Below, piece after piece: positions 3,777 to 57,958 of a DNA stretch of 59,654 nucleotides. Below the pieces are notes generated by a model, which worked only from the letters and a program-made list of their open reading frames with translations, did not search any database and had not been told where the DNA came from. How positions within the stretch are numbered: position 1 is the stretch's first letter; the number at the start of each line of letters is the position of its first letter. Source of the stretch: an uncultured Candidatus Saccharibacteria bacterium (GTDB lineage Bacteria; Patescibacteriota; Minisyncoccia; Phycocordibacterales; UBA5272). Location: the NCBI GenBank assembly GCA_964510805.1, contig CAZEDG010000004.1, forward strand, positions 1 through 59,654, in the 5' to 3' direction. The position numbers and the translations under genes are program-made.

Positions 3777-3863
3777 GCGTAGATGGTGGAGTGGCCAATC
3801 ACAATTGACTGTAAATCAATCGCCCTTCGGGCTTCGCTGGTTCGAATCCAGCTCTACGCACCA
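3777..3863 (+). tRNA. tRNA-Tyr (anticodon GTA). It is class II with a long variable arm, and the CCA end is encoded.
   Basis: Acceptor GCGTAGA/TCTACGC. Anticodon stem ATTGA/TCAAT with loop CTGTAAA. Variable-arm hairpin GCCCTTCGGGC. T-arm GCTGG-TTCGAAT-CCAGC, then discriminator A and CCA. Confidence 0.9.
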
Positions 3864-6311: not shown

Positions 6312-8420
6312 ATGTTCGAAGAATTTTCTCCTAAACCAGATTCGGTAGTTAATGATTCTATTCCTGATCCCCAAGCACAACCACAACTTTCTTATGAAGA
6401 GCGAATGCAACAACTTGAGGAAAGATTTAGTGTTGGTGTTCCTAAGCAAAAAATTAAAGAAGGTTATCAGACAGCAAGTCAGTTATATAAAGTTTTAAAT
6501 TCTTCTCCTGAAACTATTAGATTTATTGTTGAAGGTCTTAGAAAAAATCCCTTACTTGAAGAAGAAATACAAAAAAATGCAAAAAGTGGACCCAATAAAC
6601 CAACAGAAGCATACTCTCCGTTACTTGTTGAAAAGATTAGAGAAAAACTTAAAGAGAAACGTGAAGATAATATAATTAAAGAAGGATACAAGACAGCAAA
6701 TAAGTTTAGTACTATTTTAAAAAAAGATCCGAAGATAATTAAATCAACTGTTGCAACACTGCTTGCTAATGATCCGACACTTGAAGGTCAGATACAAAGA
6801 GGTGCAAGAACCGGAAGTCAAACAGACGATGCATATTCCCCAATATTGTTACAACTCATTGCAGATCAGTTTCCTCTATTAATGAAAAAAGGGTATTTAA
6901 AGTCAAAAAAACTTGGAGAGATTCTCGGGTATCATGACAAGACGATTAAATTAACGGTAAAAAAAATACTTAAGGAAAACCCATTACTTAAATCTGAGAT
7001 ACAAGAAAATGCAAGAGATGGAGGCTCTCCATCAGAAGCCTACTCTCCATTTTTAATCGAAAAAATTAAACAATTGTTAGATGGTTTAAATCCTAAGGAA
7101 GGATATATGACAGCAAGTCAGATACGTTACCATCTTGGCGCTGCCGTGCCTACAATTGAAAGTGCGATAGAAACGGTTAAATTTACAAGACCGGATTTAG
7201 TATCTCATGTACAAGAAATTGTAATGAGTGGAAAGAAAAAACGTAGCGCTTACTCACCTTTGTTTGTAGATGAAATTAGAAAAGTAATTAAATCTAGAGA
7301 TGTTAATCAAGGGTATTTAACTGTAAAAAAAATAGCACCACTTTTAAATTCCACTAGACAAACTATTGAGTTTATTGTTAAAGAGATCCTTAAAGAAGAT
7401 AAATTTCTAGAAAGAGAGATACAAACAAGAAATATAAAATGGGGCTCAGGAAAATCTCCCGATGCGTATTCTCCTTTTTTTATTGAAAGGATTAGAGAGA
7501 AATTAAATCTAAGTCGTAAGCAGAATATGATTAAGGATGGGTATCAGACAGCAAATGGATTACAAAATATTTTAAATAGTAATTCGAAAACCATTAAAAC
7601 AATAGTTGGAAAACTGTGCATAGATGTACCTCAGTATGAACAAGAAGTGCAAAGGAATGCAAAAATCTACAATAGATTTATTTCGGATGCATATTCTCCA
7701 CTTCTGGTTGAAAAAATTAGAGAAAAACTTAAGGAATCTGAACCTAAAATTCTTACTGTAAATCGTGGTTATATATTTCAGTACTCACTAGAACTCATTC
7801 TTAAACTTGTCGGTAATACAAATATTTTTGTTGAAAAAACCATTAAGATACAAGGAAGAAAAGGTAGCCACAGACCAGATCTGATGCACGTATCTTCTGA
7901 TGATCAAAAAGTAACTATCTTTGATATTAAGTTACAGACAACGACAATAGGTATAGAAAATGATATTGAAAATTATTCGCAATATATTAATGACAAATAT
8001 CCACAAGGTGGTAACTTGGTGTTTCTCTGTCTTAATGGGCCAGAAATTGGGAAAGAAGCTCTAGAAGGAAAAGAAAAAGTGACGGTACGGTATTATCATG
8101 CGCTTGATTTTATTGATAGATTGCTTGATAACTCACGCAATAAATTTCTATTACGCACCCTTAGAGGGAAAGAGAATGACAGTTTATCTGACACAGAACC
8201 TCTTACACCAGAAGAGATTACTAAGATAGAAGAAATTAAGTCACGATTACTTCTTCTAAGAGATCAAATACAGGGAAAAACTATTAACGGTGAGAATGGT
8301 GGTCCAGAACAAGTAGCAAAGAATACTCTCGCGTTAAGAACAAAATTAGGCCGTCTTGCAAAGAAGGCAACTAAAGAAGAGTTGTTACAACTTGATTACA
8401 CAACGTTGATGAATGTGTAG
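6312..8420 (+). CDS. 702-aa protein with six tandem ~70-aa repeats (consensus (K/Q)(E/D)GY.TA......TI...V.....E.Q.....G.....AYSP.L...I). The C-terminal domain carries a PD-(D/E)XK-like motif (RPDLMHV...IFDIK).
   Basis: The repeats are evident in the translation. The D...(D/E)xK spacing fits the restriction-endonuclease fold. Confidence 0.6.
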   Translation: MFEEFSPKPDSVVNDSIPDPQAQPQLSYEERMQQLEERFSVGVPKQKIKEGYQTASQLYKVLNSSPETIRFIVEGLRKNPLLEEEIQKNAKSGPNKPTEAYSPLLVEKIREKLKEKREDNIIKEGYKTANKFSTILKKDPKIIKSTVATLLANDPTLEGQIQRGARTGSQTDDAYSPILLQLIADQFPLLMKKGYLKSKKLGEILGYHDKTIKLTVKKILKENPLLKSEIQENARDGGSPSEAYSPFLIEKIKQLLDGLNPKEGYMTASQIRYHLGAAVPTIESAIETVKFTRPDLVSHVQEIVMSGKKKRSAYSPLFVDEIRKVIKSRDVNQGYLTVKKIAPLLNSTRQTIEFIVKEILKEDKFLEREIQTRNIKWGSGKSPDAYSPFFIERIREKLNLSRKQNMIKDGYQTANGLQNILNSNSKTIKTIVGKLCIDVPQYEQEVQRNAKIYNRFISDAYSPLLVEKIREKLKESEPKILTVNRGYIFQYSLELILKLVGNTNIFVEKTIKIQGRKGSHRPDLMHVSSDDQKVTIFDIKLQTTTIGIENDIENYSQYINDKYPQGGNLVFLCLNGPEIGKEALEGKEKVTVRYYHALDFIDRLLDNSRNKFLLRTLRGKENDSLSDTEPLTPEEITKIEEIKSRLLLLRDQIQGKTINGENGGPEQVAKNTLALRTKLGRLAKKATKEELLQLDYTTLMNV

Positions 8421-8454
8421 ATACTATGTGTATCACTTGCTATACTAAAACCAT

Positions 8455-9513
8455 ATGACACTAGGTCAAGAACGCAAAGTAACTAACGATCATAACAAAG
8501 CTCTCATTCTTAATGACAAGCTAGAAGAATTTCGTGAAGCTCATCCGCGATCAAAAAGACCTGACCAAGAAATAGTTGACGGGATGGTTAAAGATGACGC
8601 ACGCAATCTTTTTCCTTATAAACATTTTTCTCCTGATACCCAAGAGTGGCTTAGAAACTTATCAATTTCTGGAATTAAGGTATTAGAAGATGGGTATCTT
8701 GAGGTTCGTAAGTGGGATAATACTGGACGACATTTTGGTAGACCAAGAAGAATGTTCCAAAGAGTTGATGATATAGATGCCGGGATACGAATGCAAGATC
8801 ATATTCTCGAAGGGTATATTACAAGGAAAGATAGCAAAAAAGATAACAAAGAGAAGGCAAGAGAAGACGAAAGTGTTAGATTAGATTCTATCGAGGAAGT
8901 AATAGAAGAAGCAAACTCACTTTTTCTTGCGTGGAAGTTTGCAAAGCAGGAAGATAAAGAAGAAGTGAAGCAGAGACTTGCTCAAGTAATTCTTACTCTT
9001 GAAAAATGTCGCAATGAGTTCAAGGTACGAACAAAAAGACAAGCACAAGCAGTGCTTCGTATGAAGGATAGTAGAGGAAGAGACAATCCGAGCGCGCTCG
9101 CTCTCCGTACGGTCACCGCTCTTAATAATCTGCAAATGAGATTGCAAGAAATTCAGGATATTGCACCAAAAGTTGCTTTGCGAAAAGAGCTACTTGTACT
9201 TGAGAAGCGTCGAAATGAAAAGCTTTGTTTTAAGGCGGTTGCAAAATTACGTTTTATTTTACGACATGTGTTTTTTGGCAAGAGTCCAAAAAGTCTTAGA
9301 GACTCTGATGCTACCGGACTTCTCGGTAAAGTAGGAGAAGCCAAGGAAGCACTTCGCGAAGTCATCATTTCTCCTTATCGAGAAAGACGTAATCAGGTAT
9401 TGTTTTTTCTTGCAACCCTAGAAGATGTAATGAAATCAAAAGAATCAATGACAGAAAACAGAGAGATGATTAAGAAACTATTACTTGATATTATAAAAAT
9501 GTTGGAGGAGTAG
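8455..9513 (+). CDS. Hypothetical 352-aa coiled-coil-rich protein.
   Basis: ORF in the operon with no recognisable motif. Confidence 0.5.
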   Translation: MTLGQERKVTNDHNKALILNDKLEEFREAHPRSKRPDQEIVDGMVKDDARNLFPYKHFSPDTQEWLRNLSISGIKVLEDGYLEVRKWDNTGRHFGRPRRMFQRVDDIDAGIRMQDHILEGYITRKDSKKDNKEKAREDESVRLDSIEEVIEEANSLFLAWKFAKQEDKEEVKQRLAQVILTLEKCRNEFKVRTKRQAQAVLRMKDSRGRDNPSALALRTVTALNNLQMRLQEIQDIAPKVALRKELLVLEKRRNEKLCFKAVAKLRFILRHVFFGKSPKSLRDSDATGLLGKVGEAKEALREVIISPYRERRNQVLFFLATLEDVMKSKESMTENREMIKKLLLDIIKMLEE

Positions 9514-9555
9514 GTGTTGTTTTTGTGACTGGTTATTCCGTGCTACTATATCCTC

Positions 9556-10980
9556 ATGCAATATCTTCTCATTCCTTCCCGTCACATTCTTTATAGCAAA
9601 GAGCAGTATGACGCTTTGCTTAATCATCTTAAGAAAAATTCTTATGAGAAAGTAATTCTCGCGATTACTTCGTCTGATCTTAATAATTGTAAGTACTCAT
9701 CGATCGATATCTTCTATCGCACACTTATGGCAAGCACGCTTGCTGGGCATCTTCTTAGGGAATGTAATGCTACCTGTGTTATTACAACTGTTCCTCATAC
9801 CAGGAAAACAGATTCGTATGCATCGTATGTGGTGAAGCATGTTTTTTGGAAAATAGGGCTTACGCTTACACCAGAAAATACAAGAGTCTTCTCGTATGGA
9901 AAGTACATGTCAGAGTCTTTTTCTTCTGCTTCATATGATACCGTATCTTGTTTTGTTAAAGACCATGTGCATCTTTTTGAAAAACTTTTTAGAGAAGGGG
10001 ATAGTGAGTATTTTTGGAGTATGCTTTCTTTACCAAGTGAGCAAGTGTTTTCTCATCAAAGCGAACTTCTTGGAATAACCAAAAAAATATGGCTTGATCC
10101 TATTCTCAAAGAAATGGGAAGTATCACCGAGACACGTAATTATCATATTTATACGCATGCTATGAGTAATGAGCAGGTGATTGAGTACAAGTACAACGAT
10201 ATTAAGGATTATCTTGTGGAAGGAAAAATTGTTGATGAGGGGTGTGCTGATTGTGCGCTCTTTATTCCTGTTGCGCGAGACTTTCCTGATTCTGATCTTA
10301 TTGGTGTTGAGATCTCAAGTGATTTTATCGCAAGAGCAAATGAAAGAATCAGGGAAGGGTTCTTCGGTGGAAGCTTCGTGACAGTGCTTCAGGCGAATTT
10401 GCTTTTTCCTATTTTCCAAAATGAATCTATTGATACGGTGATTTGTAACTCTACGCTTCATGAGATTTGGTCTTATAATAACAAGATGGAATCTCTTAAG
10501 GGATATCTTACTTACAAATATAATCAGCTAAGGAAAGGTGGAAGACTTATTGCTCGTGATGTAGTTGGCGTGGAAGATCCTCGCAAGGTGGTGCTTCTTA
10601 GAGATGTGACCGATAACAATACGATGTGGAAGAAGTTCTTGAATGACTTTGATCATGTGGGTGATGATGTTTGCGAGGAGGTAGTGGTTAATGGTCAGGT
10701 CTATGCGAAGACTTCGTATAAGCTTGCTTCTGAATATTTGCTTCATAAGGATTATCAAGATAATTGGCAGAGTGAGATGCATGAAGAGTTTTGCCACATG
10801 AATAGTACTTCTTGGAAAGAATTGCTTCTTTCGGTCGGGTTTACAAACGTTATCGTGAATGCGTATCAGAATAGCTGGATTGTTGAGAATCGTTTCAAAG
10901 GTAAAGTGATACTTCTTGATGAGTCATTTCGCGAAGTTGCATATCCTCCAACAAATGTAGTGATTGTCGCGGAGAAGTGA
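9556..10980 (+). CDS. 474-aa protein with a C-terminal class-I SAM-dependent methyltransferase-like fold and an uncharacterised N-terminal half.
   Basis: Motif I-like VDEGCADCALF, post-I acidic LIGVEIS, and motifs II/III at FVTVLQANLLFP...IDTVICNSTLHEI. No D/NPPY motif, so it does not look like an N6/N4 DNA methyltransferase. Confidence 0.5.
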   Translation: MQYLLIPSRHILYSKEQYDALLNHLKKNSYEKVILAITSSDLNNCKYSSIDIFYRTLMASTLAGHLLRECNATCVITTVPHTRKTDSYASYVVKHVFWKIGLTLTPENTRVFSYGKYMSESFSSASYDTVSCFVKDHVHLFEKLFREGDSEYFWSMLSLPSEQVFSHQSELLGITKKIWLDPILKEMGSITETRNYHIYTHAMSNEQVIEYKYNDIKDYLVEGKIVDEGCADCALFIPVARDFPDSDLIGVEISSDFIARANERIREGFFGGSFVTVLQANLLFPIFQNESIDTVICNSTLHEIWSYNNKMESLKGYLTYKYNQLRKGGRLIARDVVGVEDPRKVVLLRDVTDNNTMWKKFLNDFDHVGDDVCEEVVVNGQVYAKTSYKLASEYLLHKDYQDNWQSEMHEEFCHMNSTSWKELLLSVGFTNVIVNAYQNSWIVENRFKGKVILLDESFREVAYPPTNVVIVAEK

Positions 10981-11160
10981 CGTATTAAAGCAAAAAAGCG
11001 TTGATAGATATACATAAAAAGGGAGATTTTATAGATAGAAATAATGGAATTGTAAATATTGACAAATATAATTATATATGATAAATTAATCTTGTCTCAA
11101 AATTGGGTTTCCCAACAAGAGCAAATGTAGTTCATCGTTAATCAATCAGGAGAATTCTCA

Positions 11161-13230
11161 ATGGAAACTGTAGGTGGTATCTTCAACGTGATTTCCGGCC
11201 ATCTTGGCACGATCATCGCTTTCATCGCCTTGGTCGCATTCATCCTCCTCTACAAGTGGACGTTCCGTCTCTTCGGCATCTACATCATCCCCGATGACTC
11301 GCTCGGCACACTGACCAAGAAGTTCGTGCTGTTCGGCGCGAACCGCCAGCTGCCAGCGGGCAAGATCGTGGCGCTCCACGGCGAGGCTGGCTACCAGGCC
11401 GACACCCTCGCTCCCGGCATCCACTTCTTTCTGTGGCCGTGGCAGTACGACGTGAACATCTCGAAGTTCACCGTGATCCCTCCGGGGCAGGTCGGTGTGG
11501 TCGAGGCGTGCGATGGTCTACCTCTTCCGGATGGGCGCATCATCGCCAAGGACGTCGTCTGTGATAACTTCCAGGACGCACGCGCCTTCCTCGAGAATAG
11601 TGGTGAGCGTGGCGTGCAGGTGGGCATCATCCCGCCTGGCGCCTGGCGCATCAACACTCTGCTGTTCACGGTGAAGATGTCCCCGATGATCGTCGTCGGC
11701 CCCAACCAGATCGGTGTGGTCGAAGCGCACGACGGTGCCCCGCTCTCAGGCGGGCGCATCCTCGGCAAACATGTCGACAGCGACATGTTCCAGGATGGTC
11801 AAGCCTTCCTCAACAACGGTGGTGAGCGTGGCCCGCAGATGACCATCATCCCCCAAGGTCAGTACCGGATCAATCCGGCACTGTTCAAGGTCGAGATGGC
11901 CGATGTGGTCGACGTGCCTGATGAGAAGATCGGGGTGGTCACCACCAAGGAAGGCGCTCCGCTTCCCACTGGCGACATCGCCGGCGAAGAGGTCGACGGG
12001 CATAACTCGTTCCAGGACCCGATGGCGTTCGTTGGAAGTGGCGGCACCAAGGGTCTCCAGGTCCAGGTGCTGCGCGCCGGTCGCTACTTCATCAACCCGA
12101 AGTTCGCCATCGTGGAGATGAAGGACATGCTCGAGGTGCCGATCGCGCACGTCGGCGTCGTCATCGCGTTTGTCGGCAAGAAGGGCGAGGACGTCACCGG
12201 TGCCGGGTTCAAGCACGGCAACATGGTGCGCAAGGGCGAACGCGGTGTCTGGATCGACGTGCTCGATCCGGGCAAGTACCCGATGAACCCGTACGCCTTC
12301 AAGGTGATCAACGTTCCGACGGCAAACGTCGTGCTCAACTGGGCCAACAGCAAGACCGAGAGCCACAAGCTCGACGAGAAGCTGTCGACCATCACCGTCC
12401 GCTCTTCCGACGGCTTCCCGCTCAACCTGGACGTCAGCCAGATCATCCACATCCCGACCAGCGAGGCCCCCAAGGTCATCGCCCGGTTCGGCAGCATGCT
12501 GGCGCTGGTCACGCAGGTGCTCGAGCCCACCATCGGCAACTACTTCCGCAACGCGGCGCAGAGCTACGGTTGCATCGACTTCGTCGTCGGCCGTGCGCAG
12601 CGCCAAGCCGAGGCTGAACAGGCCATCAGCGAGGCGCTGAAGGAGTACGACGTGGTGGCTGTCCGCACGCTGATCGGCGACCTCGTTCCGCCCCAGGAAC
12701 TGATGGACACGCTGACTCAGCGCAAGGTGGCCGAGCAACAGAAGCTGACGTACGGCGTACAGCAACAGGCGCAAGAGGCGCGCAAGCTCCTCGAGCAAGC
12801 GCATGCGCAAGCCGAGACCCAGGCGAGCGTGGTGACCGCCGAACGTTCCGTCGAGATCGCTCGCTTCAATGCGAGCGCCGCGGTGGAGACCGCGGAAGGT
12901 GGTGCCAAGGCGAAGAAGATCAACGCCAATGCGGACGCTGAAGTCCTCCGTGTCGTCGGCGAAGCCGAAGGCGCGAAGATCACTGCGGTGGGTTCCGCCG
13001 AAGCTGAGGTCATGACTCGCAAGACGACCGCCATCGGTGCCGACAACTACGCGCGCATTCAGGTCGCCGATTCGCTCGGCAAGGCCGGTATCAAGCTGGT
13101 TCCCGACGTCATGGTCGCAGGTGGTGACGGAACGCGCGGTGGCACCATTGTCGACGCACTGCTCGGCAACATCCTTGCCAAGGGTCTCCCTGGCACGCCC
13201 TCCGCGAAGCCGGCCGAAGCCAAGGCTTGA
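11161..13230 (+). CDS. Flotillin/SPFH (band-7) family membrane protein with an N-terminal TM helix, four ~60-aa internal repeats and an Ala/Glu-rich flotillin-type C-terminus. The CDS is strongly GC-rich.
   Basis: Repeats of the form IIPPGQVGVVEAxDGxPLPxGRI...FQDxxAFLxNGGERG. C-terminal AEAEQ.../EAEGAKI stretches. AGGAG lies 9 nt upstream of the ATG. Confidence 0.7.
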   Translation: METVGGIFNVISGHLGTIIAFIALVAFILLYKWTFRLFGIYIIPDDSLGTLTKKFVLFGANRQLPAGKIVALHGEAGYQADTLAPGIHFFLWPWQYDVNISKFTVIPPGQVGVVEACDGLPLPDGRIIAKDVVCDNFQDARAFLENSGERGVQVGIIPPGAWRINTLLFTVKMSPMIVVGPNQIGVVEAHDGAPLSGGRILGKHVDSDMFQDGQAFLNNGGERGPQMTIIPQGQYRINPALFKVEMADVVDVPDEKIGVVTTKEGAPLPTGDIAGEEVDGHNSFQDPMAFVGSGGTKGLQVQVLRAGRYFINPKFAIVEMKDMLEVPIAHVGVVIAFVGKKGEDVTGAGFKHGNMVRKGERGVWIDVLDPGKYPMNPYAFKVINVPTANVVLNWANSKTESHKLDEKLSTITVRSSDGFPLNLDVSQIIHIPTSEAPKVIARFGSMLALVTQVLEPTIGNYFRNAAQSYGCIDFVVGRAQRQAEAEQAISEALKEYDVVAVRTLIGDLVPPQELMDTLTQRKVAEQQKLTYGVQQQAQEARKLLEQAHAQAETQASVVTAERSVEIARFNASAAVETAEGGAKAKKINANADAEVLRVVGEAEGAKITAVGSAEAEVMTRKTTAIGADNYARIQVADSLGKAGIKLVPDVMVAGGDGTRGGTIVDALLGNILAKGLPGTPSAKPAEAKA

Positions 13231-13396
13231 CTCCTGGCTGGTTGAGTAACACTCACTAGTGCAAGGCTAGTGCGAGCCCTGTCAAACGTTAAATCGTTTC
13301 GGGGCTTTTTTCTTTTCCTAACTTTTACTATTTTTTGTATCGTGTACACATTATTAGCTTTTTTGTTGTGGAACTTTTTGGTAGTATATAAAGTAT

Positions 13397-14056
13397 ATGA
13401 GTACAAAGTCTTCAGATATTCGTTTTGCTATTGTTTCTACTGATATTATTTTGCTTCGAGAAAATGAAGGCGATATCGAATTTGGCGTGATGGATATTGA
13501 TAGACCTCCTTACTATGTTCATATGGAGGGTTTTGTCGGTGGTGTACTCAGACCAGAAGAGACTGCTCTTATGGCGAGTCATCGAATTTTGGAAGAAAAG
13601 ACTTCTATCAAACCTAGCGAAGTGCAGTTCTTTCCTCTTGGTTTTTATGATGACCCTAAGCGAGATGAGAGAGGGCGTGTCGTTGCGCTCGCATATCTTG
13701 GTATTCTTACGGGATCAGGTGAGGAATATGGGCTTACTTGGTACCCACTGTACAAGAAGGCAAAGTTTGCATACGATCACACACTTATGTTACGTGATAC
13801 GATAGAGTACCTTAAGTCACATCTCTATGTCTCAACGATTGCACTCGCGTTTCTCCCTAAACATTTTGTGGTAAGTAAACTCAAAGCTATTTTTGATTAC
13901 ATAGAAGGGGAGGAGATTGATAAGAGAAATTTTTATAAATTCCTAGACACCTATCCGGTAGAAAAAACAAAAGAACTGCAGAGTGAAGGGAGGGGGAGGC
14001 CAGCACTTATTTATAAGAAGAAACAGACTAAAGCTTTCTTTTTATCTAAGAAATAA
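13397..14056 (+). CDS. nrtR: Nudix hydrolase fused to a C-terminal winged-HTH, i.e. an NrtR-like NAD-metabolism regulator.
   Basis: Nudix box GGVLRPEETALMASHRILEEKTSI. C-terminal DKRNFYKFL...GRGRPALIYKK resembles the NrtR DNA-binding domain signature. Confidence 0.6.
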   Translation: MSTKSSDIRFAIVSTDIILLRENEGDIEFGVMDIDRPPYYVHMEGFVGGVLRPEETALMASHRILEEKTSIKPSEVQFFPLGFYDDPKRDERGRVVALAYLGILTGSGEEYGLTWYPLYKKAKFAYDHTLMLRDTIEYLKSHLYVSTIALAFLPKHFVVSKLKAIFDYIEGEEIDKRNFYKFLDTYPVEKTKELQSEGRGRPALIYKKKQTKAFFLSKK

Positions 14057-14140
14057 TGTTAGAACCTACACACTTAAGTGACGTGTAGAGAAAACACCTT
14101 ATTTGTGGGTGTTTTTTGCTTTATTTTGCTTGTACACATG

Positions 14141-14229
14141 TTAATTAGTGTAAAACTTGCACTAATTAATCACCTATGCTAGAGTGTAGATAGATATTAG
14201 TGTAGTTAATACACTAATAAATACAAAAG
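14141..14229. promoter_or_regulatory. Two palindromes upstream of the PP2C gene: TTAATTAGTG-N9-CACTAATTAA (14141-14169) and TATTAGTGTA-gttaa-TACACTAATA (14205-14229). Both share the half-site TTAGTGTA/TACACTAA.
   Basis: Read directly from the sequence. The same half-site appears upstream of nadE. Confidence 0.5.
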
Positions 14230-14289
14230 GAATCAATTAAAAATAATTCCATAAAGTTCTTTGAAATTATAGTTCTGAAAGGAAATCAT

Positions 14290-15153
14290 ATGAACACTGT
14301 TTCGCATCTTGAAGAATTGTTTAGAGTTGGTGCAGGAAAAGTTCCTGGAACTGATCATACAATGCCCGGGCTTCCTGCTTGGAAAAATTGTCAGGACGCG
14401 TACCGTGTAGAAATAAACAAGCACGCCATCGTTATCGTTGTTTGTGACGGTAATGGTAGTGAGTCAAATAGCGAAGTTGGAGCATCTCTTTCGGCGCAAC
14501 TCTTGGCAAGAAAAATTGCTGAAGAGGTGAAGATTAGAGAGGTTTTTGAACCAATCGAAATTCTTGAAGAGGCACGCTGTGCACTCATGCAACTTTTTCT
14601 TGATCTCGGTGAGCATCTTATGGGAAGCTTCACTGAGAACGCAAATCGTTTTATGCTTGCAACTGCGCTTGTTGCGATTGTGACCGAAGAAGAAACAGTA
14701 ATTGCTGGTATTGGTGATGGATATTATGCGGTAAATGGAGAAGTTGTTGAAATTGGCCCATTCCCTGGTAACGCACCACCGTACCCTGTCTATGCAATTA
14801 CCGGATCGTCACTTGCTTCGCATTCGCCTGAACTTGTTCGCTTCACTTTATATCGCAGGATGCCAACTCAAGAAGTTGATACGCTTGCGATTATGAGTGA
14901 TGGGGTGAAATATCTCATTCAAGCAGTTGGCACGCCTCTGCCTAAGAAGCCTCATGAACAAGTTCCTCCTCTTGATACATTTTGGTTGGAAGAGCGGTAT
15001 GTGAAGAATCCTGACAATATTCGTCGTCAGCTTGCGCTTATTAACATCGAAACGATTTCGTACACCGAAGATGGTAAGCCTTACTTACGTACTGGCGTGC
15101 TCAAGGATGATACAACAATTGTCATCATGAGGCGTAATACGTCTAGTACGTAG
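14290..15153 (+). CDS. PP2C-family Ser/Thr protein phosphatase.
   Basis: Metal-binding motifs VCDGNGS, GIGDG and MSDG. Confidence 0.65.
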   Translation: MNTVSHLEELFRVGAGKVPGTDHTMPGLPAWKNCQDAYRVEINKHAIVIVVCDGNGSESNSEVGASLSAQLLARKIAEEVKIREVFEPIEILEEARCALMQLFLDLGEHLMGSFTENANRFMLATALVAIVTEEETVIAGIGDGYYAVNGEVVEIGPFPGNAPPYPVYAITGSSLASHSPELVRFTLYRRMPTQEVDTLAIMSDGVKYLIQAVGTPLPKKPHEQVPPLDTFWLEERYVKNPDNIRRQLALINIETISYTEDGKPYLRTGVLKDDTTIVIMRRNTSST

Positions 15154-15178
15154 TCGTCTTGCTAACCCAAAAGGAGAT

Positions 15179-17056
15179 ATGATGGACGTCATGATTGATG
15201 GGAAGCGTTTTCGGACGAATCCTTCGAAACTTATCGGCCAAGGAGGTGAAGCTCTGATTTATGATATTGGCAACAATACCGTACTCAAGCTTTACAAACT
15301 TCCAACTCATCCTGACTTCGTTGGCAACAAGGAGGCAGTTGATGGCGCTGTTGCAAGAATTGCTGAACACCAAACCAAACTTGCTCTCTTTCCAAAAGGA
15401 ATGCCTAAGCGTGTAGTTGGTCCAAAGTCTCTTGCGCTTGATACAAAAGGGGATGTGGTCGGATACACTATGCCACTTATTTCTCAAGGAGAAGTGTTAC
15501 TTCGTTATGGAGAACGTAGATTCCGTGAGATGGGAGGCATCAAAGAAGAGACTCTTCGTCTGATTTATCTTGACCTTCATACAACGGTGCTTGGTGTACA
15601 TAAGGCTAATGCGGTAATTGGAGACTTCAATGACTTGAATGTGATTGTTGTTGGCGATGAAGCATATCTTGTGGATACTGACAGTATGCAATTTGGTTCA
15701 TTTTATTGTCGTGTCTTTACTGCAAAGTTTCTTGATCCGACTCTTGCAAAAGAGTCAGGTGGTAGTCTGATACTTGCAAAGAAGCACAATCAAAATTCTG
15801 ATTGGTATGCTTACAGTATCATGCTTATGCAAGCGCTCCTGTATGTTGGTCCGTACGGCGGAGTATTTCGCCCACAGGATAAAAATCATACCTTGAGTCA
15901 TGACTTGCGTCCACTTAAACGGATTACTGTTTTTCATCCTGAAGTTAAGTATCCAAAACCGGCACGTCATTTCCGTGTACTTCCGGACGATCTTTTGCAT
16001 CAGTTTGAAAACATCTTTACAAAAGATGTTCGTGGAGTATTTCCAAGACATCTTGTTGAAAGTCTTGTTTGGAAAACCTGTAGCACGTGCGGTATGCTTC
16101 ATATGCGTACATTGTGCCCGGCGTGTGTCCAAATGACACCTCCTATGGTGCAAGAAGTTTCTACAGATACAGTGACAGCACGTAAAGTTTTCAGGACAAC
16201 AGGAACGATTCTCACGGTTGCTTATCAAGGTCGCACTCTTAAGTGGGTGTATCATGAAAGCGATAGATATCTTCGTGAAGATGGAAGTCTTGTCGCACAT
16301 GGAGCTCTTGATCATCTTTTGCGAGTGAAGATTGTCGGTAAAGAAACATTGCTTGCAAAGAGTGGTCGTGGAATGCTTGTTGGTGCAAAAGGTGCACATA
16401 AGCATTACAGCTTCGACATGTTCGGCAATCTTCCGATTGTTGACACTAACAATGAAGCACTTTTCTTTGTCTTGAATGGAAGTCTTGTACGATCTCTAGA
16501 AAGCAGTCTTCTTTCAGGTGAAGAAATTATCGGAAGTGTGCTTGCTAACCGTACTCTTGTATGGGTTGGCGAAGAACTCGGCTTTGGTTTTTATAAAGCA
16601 GGGTCACTTACACGGTACTTGATCTGGAACATAAAGAGTCGCGCAATCAATGATTCGATTATTCTTCCTTCTGTATCTTCACAAATCGTTGATGCAAAAG
16701 CATATTTTGGTCACCGAAATGTTTGGTTCATGATGACCGTAAAAGAAGGAGGAGAAGTGTACAATCGCATGTATTTGATTAGTGATACTGGTCAAGTAGA
16801 AGCACGTGCCGAAGGGAAGGCAGGAGACTCTTCATGGATTGGAGATTTGCGCGGTAAGTGCGCAATCGGTAATGCACTCTTTGTTCCGACTGATGATGGA
16901 ATTGTACGTGTCGAAGCTAGACAAGGAACAATTGTTCCAGTCAAAGAGTTTTCTAGCACTACAAAATTCGTTGATAGCGCTTCAATGCTTTTTCCTGGAA
17001 ACCCAGGAATTGTCTCTGTGCGAAATGGAGAGATCTGGAATTTGGAAATGAAATAA
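15179..17056 (+). CDS. Protein-kinase-like (PKL-fold) protein with a Cys4 zinc ribbon and a long beta-rich C-terminal region.
   Basis: Gly-rich loop GQGGEA, Lys in TVLKLYK, catalytic-loop-like VIGDFNDLNV, DFG-like DTDSMQFG, and CSTCG...CPAC. Confidence 0.55.
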   Translation: MMDVMIDGKRFRTNPSKLIGQGGEALIYDIGNNTVLKLYKLPTHPDFVGNKEAVDGAVARIAEHQTKLALFPKGMPKRVVGPKSLALDTKGDVVGYTMPLISQGEVLLRYGERRFREMGGIKEETLRLIYLDLHTTVLGVHKANAVIGDFNDLNVIVVGDEAYLVDTDSMQFGSFYCRVFTAKFLDPTLAKESGGSLILAKKHNQNSDWYAYSIMLMQALLYVGPYGGVFRPQDKNHTLSHDLRPLKRITVFHPEVKYPKPARHFRVLPDDLLHQFENIFTKDVRGVFPRHLVESLVWKTCSTCGMLHMRTLCPACVQMTPPMVQEVSTDTVTARKVFRTTGTILTVAYQGRTLKWVYHESDRYLREDGSLVAHGALDHLLRVKIVGKETLLAKSGRGMLVGAKGAHKHYSFDMFGNLPIVDTNNEALFFVLNGSLVRSLESSLLSGEEIIGSVLANRTLVWVGEELGFGFYKAGSLTRYLIWNIKSRAINDSIILPSVSSQIVDAKAYFGHRNVWFMMTVKEGGEVYNRMYLISDTGQVEARAEGKAGDSSWIGDLRGKCAIGNALFVPTDDGIVRVEARQGTIVPVKEFSSTTKFVDSASMLFPGNPGIVSVRNGEIWNLEMK

Positions 17057-19296: not shown

Positions 19297-21147
19297 ATGA
19301 ACACTTACCCACGCATCACTATCGCTCAACTAGAAGTTAAGCCTCTTGATATTGAAGGTAATCTTAAGCGAATGTTTTCTTGTATACAAAAAGCAAAAGA
19401 TGATCATTCGGAAATCGTTATCTTTCCTGAACTCTGTATTTCTGGGTATCTTCTTGGTGATCGTTTTGAATACGAAGATTTGCTTATGACGCTACGAGAT
19501 GCAAATGAGCGAGTGCGAGAAGCAAGTACTGACATTGTAATTATTTGGGGAAATATTGTTTGTGATGAGAATACAATTGGAGAAGATGGTCGTATGCGTA
19601 AGTATAATGCGGTGTGTATCGCAGAGAACGGACAGTATGTAAGTAACGGTGTTCTTAGTGGGTATATGCCTAAGACACATCTTCCTAAGTATAGAATTTT
19701 TGATGATGCGAGACACTTTTATCCTGCATATAAGTTGGCACAAGAAATGGGGCTTTCTTATGAAAAATTTTTTAGACCATTTTGTATTACAAGAAAAGAT
19801 GGAAGTGTGTATTCATTAGCACTTACCGTGTGTGAGGATATGTGGGAAGATGAGTACCAGATTTCTCTTGCAACTATGTACGCACAAGCACATGTAGATC
19901 TTCTTATCGATATCTCAGCATCTCCATGGACTCTTGGAAAATGGCATGCTCGCGAAACAATGCTTACAAAAAGAAGTAAGACTATAGGTGTTCCTCTTGT
20001 GTATGTGAATTGTGTTGGGCTTCAGAATAATGGCAAGAATCTCGTGCTCTTCGATGGTGCGTCAGTGATTGTTACCGGAGAAGGTGAGTTTGCATATCGT
20101 GCGAAGTTGTATGACCCTACTTGTGATACTATTGATTGTGATCCTTCATGTAAGCTACTTACTCCTTATGTAAGAAAAAGTGAGATAGAGGAGCTTCATG
20201 ATTCTCTTATTCAAGGAATTAAAATTTTTTATACTCCTTTTCAAAAAATCATCATCGGGCTTTCTGGCGGTATTGATTCTGCACTTATGCTTGCTCTCTT
20301 GGTTCGGGCACTTGGAAGTGAAAAGATTCTTGCGATTAATATGCCGACAAGATGGAATTCTGTAACCACAAAACGCCTTGCAGAAGAATGTGCTAAGCGG
20401 TGTGGTGTTGCCTATCAAGTTGTTCCAATTGAAGGATTGTATGAAGAGCAAGTGAGGCTCCTTACAGCAAGTGGTGTACAGGAAGTTACTACTCTTACCA
20501 AAGAAAATATACAAGCACGTCTTCGTGGGTCTGTACTTGCAACATTTGCTTCACAGTATCAAGGAGTCTTTACTTGTAATGGCAATAAGACAGAAGTCGC
20601 AATGAACTATTTTACACTCTATGGCGATGGGGCAGGAGCGTCTGCATTCCTTGGGGATCTTTGGAAAGGACAAGTGTATGCTCTTGCGCGATATATCAAC
20701 AGCAAGTCACAAGTTTCTCTTATTCCAGAAGGAATACTTACTATCGTTCCAAGCGCAGAACTATCTGACGCACAGAACGTAGACGAAGGAAAAGGTGATC
20801 CAATTGTGTATGAATTTCATGATGCCCTTCTTAAGGCGTTTTGTGAGACAAGGCTTGGTGTGAAGACATTACTTAAGCTGTATCTTCGTGGTGATTTTTG
20901 GAAAACAATAGGACTTGCTTCTGGTTCTTTTGAAACGTATTTTAGAACTAAGCAAGCATTTGTAGACGCGATTCTCCATGCATGGAATGCATACAACACT
21001 GAGTACAAGCGGGTACAACTCCCTCCTGTATTCCTTACATCAAGACGTGCATTTGGTTTTGACAGAAGAGATACTATCGCTACTTCAGTCATTGATAGTG
21101 AAACAAAATCTCTTGTAGAATCAATCCTCTCAGAATCTTCACCTTAG
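19297..21147 (+). CDS. nadE: Glutamine-dependent NAD+ synthetase (nitrilase domain plus NAD synthetase domain).
   Basis: N-terminal CN-hydrolase (FPELCISGY) and C-terminal SGGIDS PP-loop. Confidence 0.85.
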   Translation: MNTYPRITIAQLEVKPLDIEGNLKRMFSCIQKAKDDHSEIVIFPELCISGYLLGDRFEYEDLLMTLRDANERVREASTDIVIIWGNIVCDENTIGEDGRMRKYNAVCIAENGQYVSNGVLSGYMPKTHLPKYRIFDDARHFYPAYKLAQEMGLSYEKFFRPFCITRKDGSVYSLALTVCEDMWEDEYQISLATMYAQAHVDLLIDISASPWTLGKWHARETMLTKRSKTIGVPLVYVNCVGLQNNGKNLVLFDGASVIVTGEGEFAYRAKLYDPTCDTIDCDPSCKLLTPYVRKSEIEELHDSLIQGIKIFYTPFQKIIIGLSGGIDSALMLALLVRALGSEKILAINMPTRWNSVTTKRLAEECAKRCGVAYQVVPIEGLYEEQVRLLTASGVQEVTTLTKENIQARLRGSVLATFASQYQGVFTCNGNKTEVAMNYFTLYGDGAGASAFLGDLWKGQVYALARYINSKSQVSLIPEGILTIVPSAELSDAQNVDEGKGDPIVYEFHDALLKAFCETRLGVKTLLKLYLRGDFWKTIGLASGSFETYFRTKQAFVDAILHAWNAYNTEYKRVQLPPVFLTSRRAFGFDRRDTIATSVIDSETKSLVESILSESSP

Positions 21148-21206
21148 AGGAAGATTCTGAGAAGAAAGTGTTGTTCTTTGTTACAAATCGCCTAAAGGAG
21201 GCACAT

Positions 21207-22520
21207 ATGGACACGAATCTGCGCGCGCTCGTCGAAGAAGTGAAGAACTCTGTCTTCGGTAGCACGTTTGTTCCGCCAGTTCAAAGTCTCATGGAGAATG
21301 ACTTCTATAAGTTCACCATGGGACAATGGATTCATAAGTATTATCCGGATGTTGTGGTTACCTTCAAGGTGATCATTCGTGATAAGAAGGTGCGACTGTT
21401 TGAGTTCGTTGATCGTGAAGATCTTGAGCGGGCATTTGATCATCTTCGGTCGCTTCGGTTCCGTCGTACTGATCTTTATTACTTGCGTGGTATTGATCTC
21501 TATGAAAAGTACATGTTCAAGGAAGAGTTTTTGCAATTCCTTTGGAACTTCCAACTTCCTCCGTATCAGATTACTCAATCAGACGGTGTCACTGAGATTT
21601 CGTTCACGGGTAAGTGGTGCGAGGTGAGTCAATGGGAGACGCTTGCGCTTCCTCTCATCATGGAACTGTACTATCGTGGCGTGATGAAGAGACTCTCTTC
21701 TTTCGCAATTGATTCTTTGTTTGAAGTTCTTGACCATAGACTTGTATCTAATCTTTACCGCATTCGTAATTTTTCTTCACCAATTACATTTGCCGACTTC
21801 TCGCTTCGTCGTAGGTTCTTGCATCTGTGGCAAAAGCATGCCGTCAAGACCGCGGTTAAGGTTCTTGGAAACAAATTTGTTGGTACATCCAACACGTGGA
21901 TGGCCTTCAATCAAGATCTTGTTCCGATCGGCACAAATGCTCATGAGATGCCAATGGTTGCTGTTGCTCTGCAGAATCATCCAGATGACATGATCTCTAC
22001 CCAGTATGACATTCTTCGGAAGTGGGAAGAGATGTACGGACAAGCTATGCGCATCATGCTTCCTGATACCTACGGGTCAGAACAGTTCTATCGTAATGCG
22101 CCAGAATTCTTGAAGAATTGGCGTGGACAGCGTCAGGACTCAGGTGATCCAATCGTAGAAGGTGAGCGTTACAAGGCATGGCTTAGGTCGCATGGCATTG
22201 ATCCGAAGACTAAGATCTCCATCTTTTCTGATGGGCTTAATGTTCCTGAGATGGAGAGGCTTGCGTCACATTTCAATGGCAATCATCTCTATACTTTTGG
22301 GTGGGGAACTCTCTTCGCAAATGATACAGAGGGGGTTGTCCCTGGCAACGAAGACATGCGTCCCTTCTCGATTGTATGCAAAGTCGTAGGAGCAAATGGT
22401 CGCCCTTGTGTGAAGCTCTCTAACAATCCGAATAAGGCGACTGGTCCAAAAGAAGAGATTGATCGTTACATGAAGATCTTCCACCCGGAAGGGCTTGTTG
22501 CAAGCGACGTGGTGGTCTAA
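21207..22520 (+). CDS. pncB: Nicotinate phosphoribosyltransferase.
   Basis: DFYKFTMGQ motif. AAGGAGG directly precedes the ATG at 21207. Confidence 0.8.
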   Translation: MDTNLRALVEEVKNSVFGSTFVPPVQSLMENDFYKFTMGQWIHKYYPDVVVTFKVIIRDKKVRLFEFVDREDLERAFDHLRSLRFRRTDLYYLRGIDLYEKYMFKEEFLQFLWNFQLPPYQITQSDGVTEISFTGKWCEVSQWETLALPLIMELYYRGVMKRLSSFAIDSLFEVLDHRLVSNLYRIRNFSSPITFADFSLRRRFLHLWQKHAVKTAVKVLGNKFVGTSNTWMAFNQDLVPIGTNAHEMPMVAVALQNHPDDMISTQYDILRKWEEMYGQAMRIMLPDTYGSEQFYRNAPEFLKNWRGQRQDSGDPIVEGERYKAWLRSHGIDPKTKISIFSDGLNVPEMERLASHFNGNHLYTFGWGTLFANDTEGVVPGNEDMRPFSIVCKVVGANGRPCVKLSNNPNKATGPKEEIDRYMKIFHPEGLVASDVVV

Positions 22521-22531
22521 CCACTATCTCT

Positions 22532-22566
22532 CTGGCGAAGTGTTGTATTACTTCGCCAGTTTTATA
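22532..22566 (+). terminator. Intrinsic terminator.
   Basis: CTGGCGAAG...CTTCGCCAG plus a T-tract. Confidence 0.7.
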
Positions 22567-22651
22567 AAGCATAAAAGTAGTATACTTTCCAAAAATTGCA
22601 TGGAAAGACTTGTATGTTTTTAAAACTCTTATTATTTTTTACTTTTAACAT

Positions 22652-23599
22652 ATGAAAAAAATCGGTGTCATCGTAGCAAGGTTCCAAGTTCCTTCTCTTC
22701 ATGAGGGACATCTTCATTTACTCACTTCTACTGCTCGTGAAGTTGATGTGCTTATTGTTGTGCTTGGGTATAAGGTTAATCAACCGGACAGCAAGAACCC
22801 TCTTTCCCTTTCTGTAAGAACTGCTATGGTGAAGCAAGCTTTTAAAAAACATTGTAATCCAAATGCTAAGCTCATAGTTCTTTCTCTTCAAGATCATCCT
22901 TTATCTAATGAAGCATGGTCACAAGAACTTGATCTTCTTATCGGAGAGGAGGTTGTGCGACTAGAGCAAGAGACACAAGAAACTTTTGCTGTTTGTCTAT
23001 ACGGGTCACGTGACAGCTTCATACGATATTATCATGGGCTTTATCAGCATCAAGTAATTGATGAAATAGAAGCAATTTCTGGTACAAAGGTACGTGAGCA
23101 AGTGAAGTCTCGTGATCCAGAATCATTTGGTGATCAGGAACGAGAAGGTATGGTGTATGCACTTACAACACTCTACAAGACAGGGATGGCTGTTGTTGAT
23201 ATTGCGGTATACAAAGAAGAGTACGGAGAAAAATACGTACTCCTTGGTCGCAAAAAGAGAGAGACGCAATATAGATTTATTGGTGGATTCTTTGATCCAG
23301 AAGTAGATAACTCCCTTGAAGATTCTGCGTTACGAGAACTTAGAGAAGAAGCTGGAGATGATCTTGTTGTTGATTCACTTAGCTATTGCATGAGTCATAA
23401 GATTGACGATTGGCGTTATAGAGATAATGATCACAAGATTGTGAGTGCACTTTTTTTGGCTAAGTATAGACATGGCGAAGTTACTCCGCTTGATGATATC
23501 GAGGCACTTGCTTGGCATAAGCTAACGCATGAGTTACCAGAGAAGGTGGTAGCTAATCATAGACTTTTTGCAGAGAAGATAGCGGGGATGCTTTTGTAG
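22652..23599 (+). CDS. nadM: Bifunctional NMN/NaMN adenylyltransferase (NadM-type) fused to a C-terminal Nudix hydrolase.
   Basis: N-terminal (H/T)xGH nucleotidyltransferase motif FQVPSLHEGH. C-terminal Nudix box GGFFDPEVDNSLEDSALRELREEAG. Confidence 0.7.
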   Translation: MKKIGVIVARFQVPSLHEGHLHLLTSTAREVDVLIVVLGYKVNQPDSKNPLSLSVRTAMVKQAFKKHCNPNAKLIVLSLQDHPLSNEAWSQELDLLIGEEVVRLEQETQETFAVCLYGSRDSFIRYYHGLYQHQVIDEIEAISGTKVREQVKSRDPESFGDQEREGMVYALTTLYKTGMAVVDIAVYKEEYGEKYVLLGRKKRETQYRFIGGFFDPEVDNSLEDSALRELREEAGDDLVVDSLSYCMSHKIDDWRYRDNDHKIVSALFLAKYRHGEVTPLDDIEALAWHKLTHELPEKVVANHRLFAEKIAGMLL

Positions 23600-57263: not shown

Positions 57264-57958
57264 GTTTGTCAGCGGTTATGTTTCTTAAGTATACATTCTT
57301 ATTCAAAAAATACATGTCGAAAACTCAGTAGATGTTTAGTAAAAATTAGTTATTTGTTTTGTAATAATTTTTTAAATATTAATTAGATAAAACAAAAAAT
57401 TAAAATATATTATTATATAACAATATATAATAAACTTTTATAAAAAACAGAAAGTATAATTTAAAATTAAAAAATAAAAATAGGGGGTTATTCTAGAATT
57501 AGACAAAAAACCAACTAGATTAGTAAAAAAGATTTAATAAACGATATCTATTAAATTTAAATCTTGATCTAATATATTTTAAAAAATAAAACTAAATAAA
57601 TAGTTTATTTTATAAAAAAGCTTATTTTTCAATAATATTAAACTATTAGATTTAACTAAATAGATTATTGTCATGTTTATGCCATGTTCTAAAATAGGGG
57701 TAAGAGGTAAATAAAATAAGTATTTTTTGTTTTAAAATAAACCCAAATAAAGCACCTGACTAGTCTCTTAAATTAGGTTAAAAATAAAGAGCATTTTTTA
57801 TTTCTTTTTGCATCATTTTGTAAATTCTAATTTGTTTCTAAATTTTCAAAATTACTATTCTAAAATAAGGATTTTTTTTATGTACTTTATCCACAATTTT
57901 TTTATATTTTAGACTATGTTTTAGTGGATTTTATTTTATACTTAATGTATAAGATTTC
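57264..57958. other. About 700-bp extremely AT-rich non-coding region lying between divergent dnaE and the collagen-like gene. It contains one perfect DnaA box (TTATCCACA) at 57881-57889.
   Basis: Composition and motif read directly. No ORF is present. Confidence 0.7.

Follow-up and report, generated by a model that had tools for sequence, protein, structure and literature searches.

How does a single gene with a markedly GC-rich coding sequence come to lie between AT-rich regulatory signals in an AT-rich genome? The gene in question encodes a flotillin/SPFH protein and is found in a stretch of 59,654 nucleotides (hereafter the window; contig CAZEDG010000004.1 of assembly GCA_964510805.1). 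The explanation that we consider probable is an established horizontal acquisition, in which a foreign coding sequence (CDS) occupies an older, conserved flotillin cassette belonging to the candidate phyla radiation (CPR), is functional and is ameliorating in composition. The gene, the GC-rich block and an antisense open reading frame (ORF) are located as follows.

11161–13230, plus strand: CDS of a flotillin/SPFH (YqiK-like) protein of 689 aa, recognized from the ORF, the Pfam Band_7 match, homologues and dN/dS.
11195–13283, no strand: GC-rich block from a two-change-point maximum-likelihood fit, with GC content of 0.63 inside and 0.34 outside.
11746–12810, minus strand: antisense ORF of 354 aa without Pfam match, a GC-driven shadow ORF and not a gene.

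The mean GC content of the window is ~39%, and it reaches 55–64% within 11001–13000. The flotillin CDS has a GC content of 0.63, with 0.65, 0.41 and 0.82 at the first, second and third codon positions (GC1, GC2 and GC3). When 31 non-overlapping window ORFs (14,544 codons) are taken as the host reference, the mean GC3 is 0.32 with s.d. of 0.068, so the flotillin value lies at z = 7.3; all other window ORFs of at least 150 aa, shadow ORFs inside the flotillin gene excepted, have GC3 of 0.21–0.49. Both third-position classes are raised, C3 to 0.49 from 0.14 and G3 to 0.33 from 0.18. In 60-nt steps, GC content goes from 0.17–0.37 (11040–11159) to 0.48–0.72 in the gene and is down to 0.25 by 13320. 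The change points fall ~11 codons into the CDS (11195) and 53 nt beyond its stop (13283), and codons 2–6 (gaa act gta ggt ggt) are AT-ending. The foreign high-GC composition described in the initial annotation is thus upheld by the windowed GC and GC3 calculation, as is its placing of the shift within the first codons and of the decay within ~70 bp past the stop. Amino-acid composition, GC1 and GC2 hardly differ between alleles of the gene and give no sign of whether the window allele is ‘young’, because the protein is too constrained.

The same annotation dismissed the 354-aa ORF and other minus-strand ORFs as artefacts. Indeed, a Pfam scan of the minus-strand ORFs within the flotillin gene returned no match, and antisense open stretches of 204 to 677 aa are present in all homologues, broadly longer with higher GC content, which is consistent with GC-driven shadow ORFs.

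Before any biological reading, an assembly or binning chimera, also proposed initially, has to be weighed, in which proteobacterial flotillin reads would have been joined to a CPR contig. The composition step is sharp and the source is metagenome-assembled, as a chimera would have it. However, both junctions are reproduced in independent contigs. A 3,259-bp contig from the Logan assembly of SRR12487046 (L018) is 100% identical to window 8563–11821 across the left junction, linking the native methyltransferase gene, through the AT-rich intergenic stretch, to the 5′-terminal 661 nt of the GC-rich gene. A contig from ENA ERZ4216102 (L023) is 99.63% identical to window 12016–14723 across the right junction, linking the 3′ 1.2 kb of the flotillin gene, the terminator, NrtR and PP2C; because it differs by 3 mismatches and one gap, it is from another strain or sample. 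The interval 11822–12015 is covered by neither contig, which leaves the chimera some room. On the other hand, binning has no bearing on the gene, with 11 kb and 46 kb separating it from the two contig ends, and the methyltransferase, LeuRS and flotillin proteins are recorded together on the window itself, as a single NCBI contig. At orthologous loci, GC content steps at the same boundaries between the same kinds of flank, and the orthologues of L001, L004, L005 and L022, GC-rich now or in the past, lie between AT-rich flanks that are homologous. The chimera is therefore rejected, with a probability close to nil. The flotillin gene is real and intact in an AT-rich Patescibacteria genome, with no assembly error.

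The host is a CPR/Patescibacteria bacterium of the Paceibacteria type, as follows from the relatives of two of its proteins and from its housekeeping gene content (ClpB, tRNA-Tyr, NadE, NAPRTase, LeuRS, UvrA, class I/II ribonucleotide reductase, DnaE and a DUF5671 protein). Named LeuRS relatives at 58–69% identity are Candidatus Parcubacteria (69%), Paceibacterota, Yonathbacteria, Minisyncoccia and ‘Patescibacteria group’, and named methyltransferase relatives are mostly of the Patescibacteria group (Nomurabacteria, Parcubacteria, Kaiserbacteria), with one labeled Nanoarchaeota.

Where, then, are the relatives of the flotillin protein? The homologue search returned at least 8000 matches, the best at 86% identity, and nothing more than 86% identical was found in a search of 5.8 billion proteins, fragments of the same strain aside. 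All named homologues among the matches listed are Beta- or Gammaproteobacteria at 63–68% identity (Niveibacterium, Uliginosibacterium, Aquabacterium, Burkholderiaceae and Steroidobacteraceae, 63–65%). A high-GC donor, similar to Actinobacteria or Proteobacteria, had been suggested; the named relatives agree with its proteobacterial half, but the donor itself was not found, the nearest copy in a high-GC context being 65–68% identical.

Scans with the flotillin protein recovered four metagenome and two genome loci, and context is known for only part of the tree tips. The closest relatives sit in AT-rich contigs, where the recovered neighbors are small housekeeping genes. These AT-context copies are listed with their protein identity to the window and with gene GC minus flank GC.

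L001, L002 and L003 (protein P0001): 86% identity, +0.21.
L004 (P0002): 75% identity, +0.27.
L005 (P0006): 69% identity, +0.09.
L006 and L009 (record title ‘Patescibacteria group bacterium’): 66% identity, +0.09.
L013 and L014 (P0051): 66% identity, +0.06.
L022: 64% identity, +0.08.

The GC3 excess over the ORFs of each own locus is +0.50 for the window, +0.43 for L001, +0.22 for L005, +0.14 for L006, +0.11 for L022 and +0.07 for L013, and the AT-richest hosts carry the GC-richest alleles. L022 (GC3 of 0.45) and L013 are within the host GC3 range, and L006, L022 and L013 are raised in C3 only. In the high-GC contexts, namely L007 (a Pseudomonadota metagenome-assembled genome), L012 (P0054), L015 (P0010) and L017 (P0021), the gene has the GC content of its flanks (difference ~0), with GC3 still 0.03–0.20 above neighboring ORFs. 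In every copy, whatever the genome, C3 is higher than in host ORFs, by about +0.08 to +0.14, which looks like a gene-specific preference for C-ending codons.

One pair of copies stands apart. L005 (4891–6978), on an AT-rich contig with the CPR-type 3′ element, and L012 (8001–10079) are 82% identical, and 98% identical in the SPFH core. L012 lies on a 67% GC contig next to genes for a methyl-accepting chemotaxis protein and a response regulator, a chemotaxis context untypical of CPR. This likeness would indicate exchange between very different genomes.

The position of the gene also recurs. In L022, the flotillin gene is two genes downstream of the same methyltransferase gene as the one neighboring it in the window; the methyltransferases are ~61% identical in tblastx (the product P0123, 60%), and NadE/NAPRTase segments are 51–57% identical. 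Given ~1000 genes, the chance of such proximity is estimated as a few per thousand. The best reading of this sequence comparison is that the flotillin locus is probably old in the CPR clade. When loci of sister genomes were checked for the gene, as had been recommended, the outcome was mixed: L022 carries it, and L019–L021, whose methyltransferase is 61% identical, have no flotillin within the recovered loci of 9–16 kb. Since several Patescibacteria-type loci carry the gene, its description as unusual cargo for a reduced genome is weakened.

The signals on either side of the CDS are the next part of the answer. Four predicted elements flank it.

11059–11087, plus strand: sigma-70-type promoter, with TTGACA at 11059–11064, a 17-nt spacer and a TG-extended −10 element TAAATT at 11082–11087.
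11094–11160, plus strand: AT-rich conserved 5′ leader with a small hairpin, the motif GTTCATCGT and a ribosome-binding site (RBS) AGGAG.
13254–13272, plus strand: conserved 3′ hairpin, CACTAG / CTAGTG with a GCAA-type loop, from folding.
13274–13312, plus strand: intrinsic terminator, GCCCTGTCAAACG / CGTTTCGGGGC followed by a T-run, from folding.

The native AT-rich promoter and the AGGAG site named initially are both present. The promoter matches the consensus at 10 of 12 positions with the TG extension, and its −35 context CAATATTGACAAAT is common to 6 of the 7 CPR-context copies. In the leader, the hairpin arms are TTGGG (11104–11108) and CCCAA (11112–11116), and the RBS at 11148–11152 is 8 nt ahead of the ATG. 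The window leader is ~80% identical to those of L001 and L004 despite unlike upstream genes; the hairpin pairing is maintained among the three through changes in both arms, and a weaker motif, GTTCNTYGT, is present in 7 of 7 AT-context copies. Compared with shuffled sequences, the leader of the window folds no better (z = 0.59), and those of L001 and L004 fold modestly better (−1.8 and −1.5).

At the other end, L001, L004, L005 and L022 have the 3′ element behind the gene at ~92% identity. Its first hairpin is conserved in these four and has a covarying stem in L013, where the element remains recognizable; L006 retains a generic terminator only. The terminator folds with z of −2.2 to −3.4, and in L001 and L004 its stem carries compensatory changes. 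A simple terminator scan missed it, probably because of a bulge in the stem, and folding detected it. The 3′ element occurs once in the window and was not found at the high-GC loci. An Rfam search of the leader and the 3′ region returned no family. When viral contigs were searched, neither the flotillin protein nor the 3′ element was found, leaving a phage vector unsupported.

Altogether, the window, L001 and L004 share ~130 bp upstream (−35, −10, leader, RBS and AT-ending codons 2–6) and ~85 bp downstream (hairpin and intrinsic terminator), with different neighboring genes. The C-terminal peptide PAEAKx is restricted to this group, and L022 has PAEVKA. Promoter, leader, last codons and terminator would thus make up a flotillin expression cassette conserved among related AT-rich CPR genomes, and window 11059–13312 would be a single-gene transcription unit with its own predicted promoter and terminator.

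A separate breakpoint was seen in L013 (7135–7590) and L014 (4430–4921), two assemblies with an identical flotillin protein. Starting 411 nt upstream of the flotillin gene, the two are 99.7% identical; further upstream they diverge, and L014 has LexA and an IS1595 transposase there. As a cassette boundary, this breakpoint was rejected: the homology reaches 411 nt upstream, into the neighboring gene, as in an ordinary strain rearrangement.

The shared flanks bear directly on the proposal of a very recent acquisition specific to this genome, in which a gene from a high-GC proteobacterium or actinobacterium would have landed behind a local promoter and RBS. The extreme GC3 excess (+0.50), the proteobacterial homologues and the lack of flotillin in the recovered 9–16 kb loci of one sister lineage (L019–L021) would suit it. 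Yet promoter, leader, AT-ending codons 2–6 and terminator recur in L001 and L004 with other neighbors, the 3′ element is common to ameliorated copies as well, and the search of 5.8 billion proteins gave no copy above 86% besides same-strain fragments. The L001 and L004 copies are separated from the window copy by dS of 0.6–0.8, and protein identities of 75–87% exclude these genomes as the window’s own species. The word ‘recent’ is therefore untenable for a unit that recurs in at least two other AT-rich genomes, and we regard this origin as very improbable. Neither was the start grafted locally, since the start codon and the ‘ME’ N-terminus are native to the gene family, high-GC copies included. 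The precision of the apparent graft is better explained by a foreign allele in a pre-existing cassette, because the flanks are shared across genomes, ameliorated copies included.

Between the window and L001 (87% amino-acid identity), dS is 0.79, dN 0.08 and ω 0.10; between the window and L004, dS is 0.64 and ω 0.29. With dS of 0.6–0.8 and low ω, these copies are no recent duplicates, and the window flotillin gene is shown by dN/dS of ~0.1 to be kept under purifying selection and is therefore functional.

The direction of compositional change was obtained by polarizing third-position changes by parsimony with an outgroup.

Window branch: 45 GC-to-AT and 9 AT-to-GC changes.
L001 branch: 45 GC-to-AT and 8 AT-to-GC changes.
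L005 branch: 84 GC-to-AT and 3 AT-to-GC changes.
L012 (high-GC) branch: 12 GC-to-AT and 36 AT-to-GC changes.

The L004 branch is likewise losing GC. Alleles in AT-rich contexts are thus shown to be losing GC at present, towards host composition, and their common ancestor had GC3 near 0.9. The amelioration of compositionally atypical acquired genes is reportedly described by a model of Lawrence and Ochman.

These changes weigh on the idea of an old vertical CPR gene whose GC richness in some lineages arose inside CPR cells, through codon or mRNA selection or biased gene conversion, and which never passed through a foreign phase. The C3 excess in all copies, which suggests a gene-specific C-ending preference, the conserved flanks and the locus position shared with L022 lean towards it. 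However, G3 is raised in the window too (0.33 against 0.18), not C3 alone, and the recent branches of the window, L001, L004 and L005 lose GC, so no GC-raising force is acting now. The positional orthologue L022 and also L013 are within host range, and the GC-richest alleles are in the AT-richest hosts. A purely vertical history is improbable on this evidence.

A single acquisition followed by uniform amelioration was rejected as well, as it cannot yield GC3 of 0.45 to 0.85 behind the same flanks. The spread in GC3 implies a calculated, approximately nine-fold difference in amelioration; moreover, the AT-context alleles are about equidistant in protein from the high-GC copies, and the AT-richest hosts hold the GC-richest alleles.

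Recombination among alleles is seen in L004 (143–2233, P0002), which is mosaic. Its codons 1–240 and from ~626 onward are window-like (up to 95% nucleotide identity), and codons 250–525 are L005/L012-like (up to 96–98% amino-acid identity). In the tree of the N-terminal segment, L004 and P0004 group with the window and L001 (100% bootstrap), and in that of the middle segment with L005 and L012 (93%). The pairs of window with L001 and of L005 with L012 are firm at 100%.

Two further explanations draw on the mosaics. According to one, a CPR clade keeps the flotillin cassette, and GC-rich alleles from high-GC bacteria, possibly host cells, have overwritten its CDS on more than one occasion. Un-ameliorated (GC3 of 0.82–0.85) to fully ameliorated (0.45–0.52) alleles behind near-identical flanks, with mosaic intermediates, are the pattern on which this account draws, and we hold it only tentatively, as a possibility.

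According to the other, the direct donor was a high-GC Patescibacterium, where the cassette had equilibrated before moving to AT-rich relatives by homologous recombination via the flanks; the window allele would then need no recent transfer between phyla. The flanks (80–92% conserved, against 64–87% for the CDS) could provide homology arms, GC content steps at the ends of the CDS, alleles are mosaic, and the window protein is no nearer to proteobacterial copies (65–68%) than to the ameliorated CPR copy of L022 (64%). On the opposite side, no high-GC CPR locus with the cassette was found among the loci retrieved, the transmembrane segment of the window protein is of the ‘GH.G’ type of high-GC non-CPR contexts and not of the ‘YWW’ type of L022 and L013, and the L005 copy shares 82% identity (98% over the core) with L012, whose chemotaxis and response-regulator neighbors are untypical of CPR. 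A donor of this kind is rather unlikely, though it has to be taken seriously as a rival.

The established acquisition into an older cassette, which we prefer, would have proceeded as follows. The CDS would derive from a high-GC bacterium, the sampled relatives being of proteobacterial type. The flotillin cassette would have long been present in the CPR clade before the GC-rich allele arrived, and this allele would already have been in the common ancestor of the cassette lineages of the window, L001 and L004. It most likely took the place of a resident allele, older and ameliorated, through recombination. Afterwards, purifying selection would have retained the allele while its composition drifts towards that of the host. 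The allele class of L005 and the middle of L004, which is closest to the non-CPR L012, may represent a second such event.

Several points weigh against this explanation. Replacement of a resident allele is an inference. The donor is unsampled, the closest high-GC-context copy being only 65–68% identical, and L012, from a high-GC context, nests with the CPR-context copies, so that at least one transfer could have gone either way. Deep nodes are weak (32–47% bootstrap), and all trees are neighbor-joining trees. Parsimony is biased in skewed composition, and AT-ancestral sites are few; the direction of change is reliable, and the implied equilibria are not. The CPR label comes from the record for L006 only, the hosts of L001, L004, L005 and L013 being inferred from low GC and gene content, and L001, L002 and L003 are 100% identical and possibly from the same sample. 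As to the junctions, L018 and the deposited assembly may share their reads, and 11822–12015 lies outside L018 and L023.

What is the protein that is so maintained? Its regions are predicted as follows.

11164–11271 (residues ~2–37), plus strand: N-terminal membrane anchor, from hydropathy and AlphaFold2 (AF2) helices 2–37.
11437–12315 (residues 93–385), plus strand: four tandem beta-rich repeats of ~73 aa, the fourth merging into the SPFH domain.
12199–12786 (residues 347–542), plus strand: SPFH/Band 7 domain (PF01145, 88.4 bits against a cutoff of 23.6, E = 7.8e-25).
12694–13083 (residues 512–641), plus strand: long Ala-rich helices, predicted flotillin-type coiled coil (AF2 helices 512–553, 559–625 and 627–641).

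The flotillin/SPFH identity assigned initially agrees with the Band_7 match. For the whole protein, Pfam gave no family besides Band_7, with Met_asp_mut_E below threshold, and no NCBIfam model matches. In Kyte–Doolittle plots, 19-residue windows exceed 1.6 at positions 4–25. Of the four internal repeats of ~60 aa described before, the number and the tandem arrangement stand, and the period is instead 73 aa, or 219 nt in DNA. R1–R3 resemble one another strongly (39/70, 32/72 and 25/70 identities; z of 19–36 against shuffles), and R4 is weaker (z of ~8–10), all pairs spanning z of 7.6–35.7; explicit local alignments showed the repeats, which self-BLASTP did not report. They are modeled at a predicted local distance difference test score (pLDDT) of 85–93, with a mean of 73.9 for the whole model. 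Pfam applied to the repeat segment with E up to 10 gave nothing, no Vault repeat or major vault protein (MVP) shoulder model. The α/β SPFH region (410–505) has strands 410–430 and 499–505 and helices 436–494 at pLDDT of only 60–79. The C-terminal part (546–689), described before as Ala/Glu-rich, is Ala-rich with 22% Ala and 8% Glu, and its predicted disordered tail ends in PAEAKA. There, the flotillin-2 match is weak (phmmer E = 1.8e-3, residues 512–672), and among known SPFH proteins sequence search detected QmcA and flotillin-2 only, both weakly.

In a Foldseek search with the model, the best full-length PDB matches are MVP (E = 1.7e-14 to 8e-11 over 700–850 columns), with the repeats aligning to MVP R1–R7 (3gf5, E = 6e-6), followed by prohibitin, HflK/C, erlin, stomatin, flotillin and QmcA (1e-9 to 1e-5). 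The protein is, according to the model, a YqiK-like flotillin of the SPFH superfamily with a putative vault-like repeat extension and a membrane anchor. By analogy with the solved assemblies of HflK/C, prohibitin, stomatin and flotillin, it most likely would insert into the cytoplasmic membrane through the N-terminal helix and oligomerize through the SPFH domain and C-terminal helices into a ring or cage, which might organize a membrane microdomain or enclose client proteins. The four beta repeats could lengthen the cage wall as in MVP. The vault-like layout is common to the whole family of 675–705 aa, which is widespread in Proteobacteria.

The flotillin gene is neighbored by genes for an S-adenosylmethionine-dependent methyltransferase and an NrtR-like regulator, then by PP2C and NAD-salvage genes; no particular client is hinted at by them. 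Pfam scans of the flotillin neighbors found no mobility gene, and PADLOC on the gene and its neighbors gave no defence-system match. The sole tRNA gene of the window (3777–3863) is 7 kb from the flotillin gene.

The NrtR-like regulator, of NUDIX/winged-helix type (13397–14056), adjoins the flotillin gene downstream, and 5 kb beyond it is a NAD salvage cluster of NadE, NAPRTase and NMNAT-NUDIX (19297–23599). In the sister loci L019 and L022, those NAD genes flank the methyltransferase gene in rearranged order. Within 14290–17056, a 625-aa ORF without Pfam match comes after the PP2C phosphatase gene; its N-terminus (GQGGEALIYDIG...LKLYK) resembles the glycine loop and lysine of protein kinases, and the two genes may be a kinase/phosphatase pair. 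Two large ORFs (702 and 352 aa) at 6312–9513 have the lowest GC3 of the window (0.21 and 0.28), and neither Pfam nor PADLOC gave them a convincing match.

Elsewhere in the window, the LeuRS (29209–31656) is unfused with 815 aa; many of its closest CPR homologues are of 890–1170 aa with an extra NUDIX domain (PF00293), some also with PF04266. Long genes are almost all on the plus strand to ~48 kb and on the minus strand from 48166 on. The cumulative GC skew rises steadily and flattens near this strand switch, which suggests that the switch is related to replication. The AT-richest kilobase is 57001–58000 (GC content of 0.229), immediately upstream of the minus-strand dnaE (54126–57263).

CPR bacteria are considered dependent on host cells and able to import foreign DNA. 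For genome scanning, a conspicuous GC island of one gene in a CPR contig assembled from a metagenome can be real, and it can be validated without reads, via independent contigs and orthologous loci. A membrane-scaffold gene under strong purifying selection would give a rare view of gene renewal in reduced genomes, as would the exchange of flotillin genes among CPR bacteria, and apparently also with high-GC bacteria, with the regulatory flanks retained; partners in DNA exchange might be revealed as well. If the recurrent overwriting were true, a single gene would record allele exchange between phyla and could point to the hosts of episymbionts. In addition, a membrane-anchored SPFH protein with a putative vault-like repeat wall would be a data point on the relation between SPFH cages and eukaryotic vaults.

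Comparison with known systems starts from the protein. Bacterial flotillins of the SPFH2/COG2268 group (E. coli YqiK, B. subtilis FloT/YuaG) have, like the window protein, an anchor and an SPFH/Band 7 domain, and the long Ala-rich helical C-terminus of the window protein may correspond to their Ala/Glu-rich one; many of its close homologues are named ‘uncharacterized membrane protein YqiK’ by JGI. It differs in ~290 extra residues, the four beta repeats, between anchor and SPFH domain. SPFH2 genes usually share an operon with a partner of the NfeD family, and 17 genomes with an SPFH2 gene have no identifiable NfeD2 partner (PMC2636767). The window gene lacks an NfeD (YqiJ/YuaF) partner, its neighbors being the methyltransferase and NrtR genes, and no NfeD gene was seen among the called genes of related loci. 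With MVP, the modeled protein shares the order of modules, from beta repeats in tandem through an SPFH-like shoulder to a long helix; its repeats number four where MVP has nine, it carries a transmembrane helix at the N-terminus where MVP is soluble, and sequence identity (13–15%) and global TM-scores (0.16–0.27) are low. Bacterial Band-7 proteins that fold like MVP were reported earlier (Daly et al. 2013, PMC3762200).

Laterally transferred SPFH genes (Hinderhofer et al. 2009, PMC2636767), horizontal transfer into Patescibacteria (PMC12455944) and amelioration are all already known. In the literature searched, no paper was found that links Patescibacteria with flotillin or with SPFH transfer. 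In groundwater too, Patescibacteria receive genes from other phyla, and ancient transfers escape detection owing to amelioration (PMC12455944); groundwater is also the source of the metagenome with the L006/L009 locus, the record of which is labeled Hain-H41. That study makes no mention of flotillin, SPFH, Band 7 or YqiK, whereas a graded amelioration series of one gene is visible here. Less ordinary are the presence of foreign and ameliorated alleles in one native cassette and the mosaic alleles.

Like other ameliorating acquired genes, the window gene shows a GC and GC3 anomaly confined to one gene and a directional excess of GC-to-AT changes. Relatives in another phylum and patchy presence in sister genomes may be further likenesses: the named homologues are Proteobacteria and the two closest copies (86% and 75%) lie in AT-rich, CPR-like contigs, and flotillin is present in L022 and absent from the recovered loci of L019–L021. 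Unlike a typical acquired island, it has no mobility gene, and its native flanks are common to ameliorated and un-ameliorated alleles, which points to allele replacement and not to insertion of a new island.

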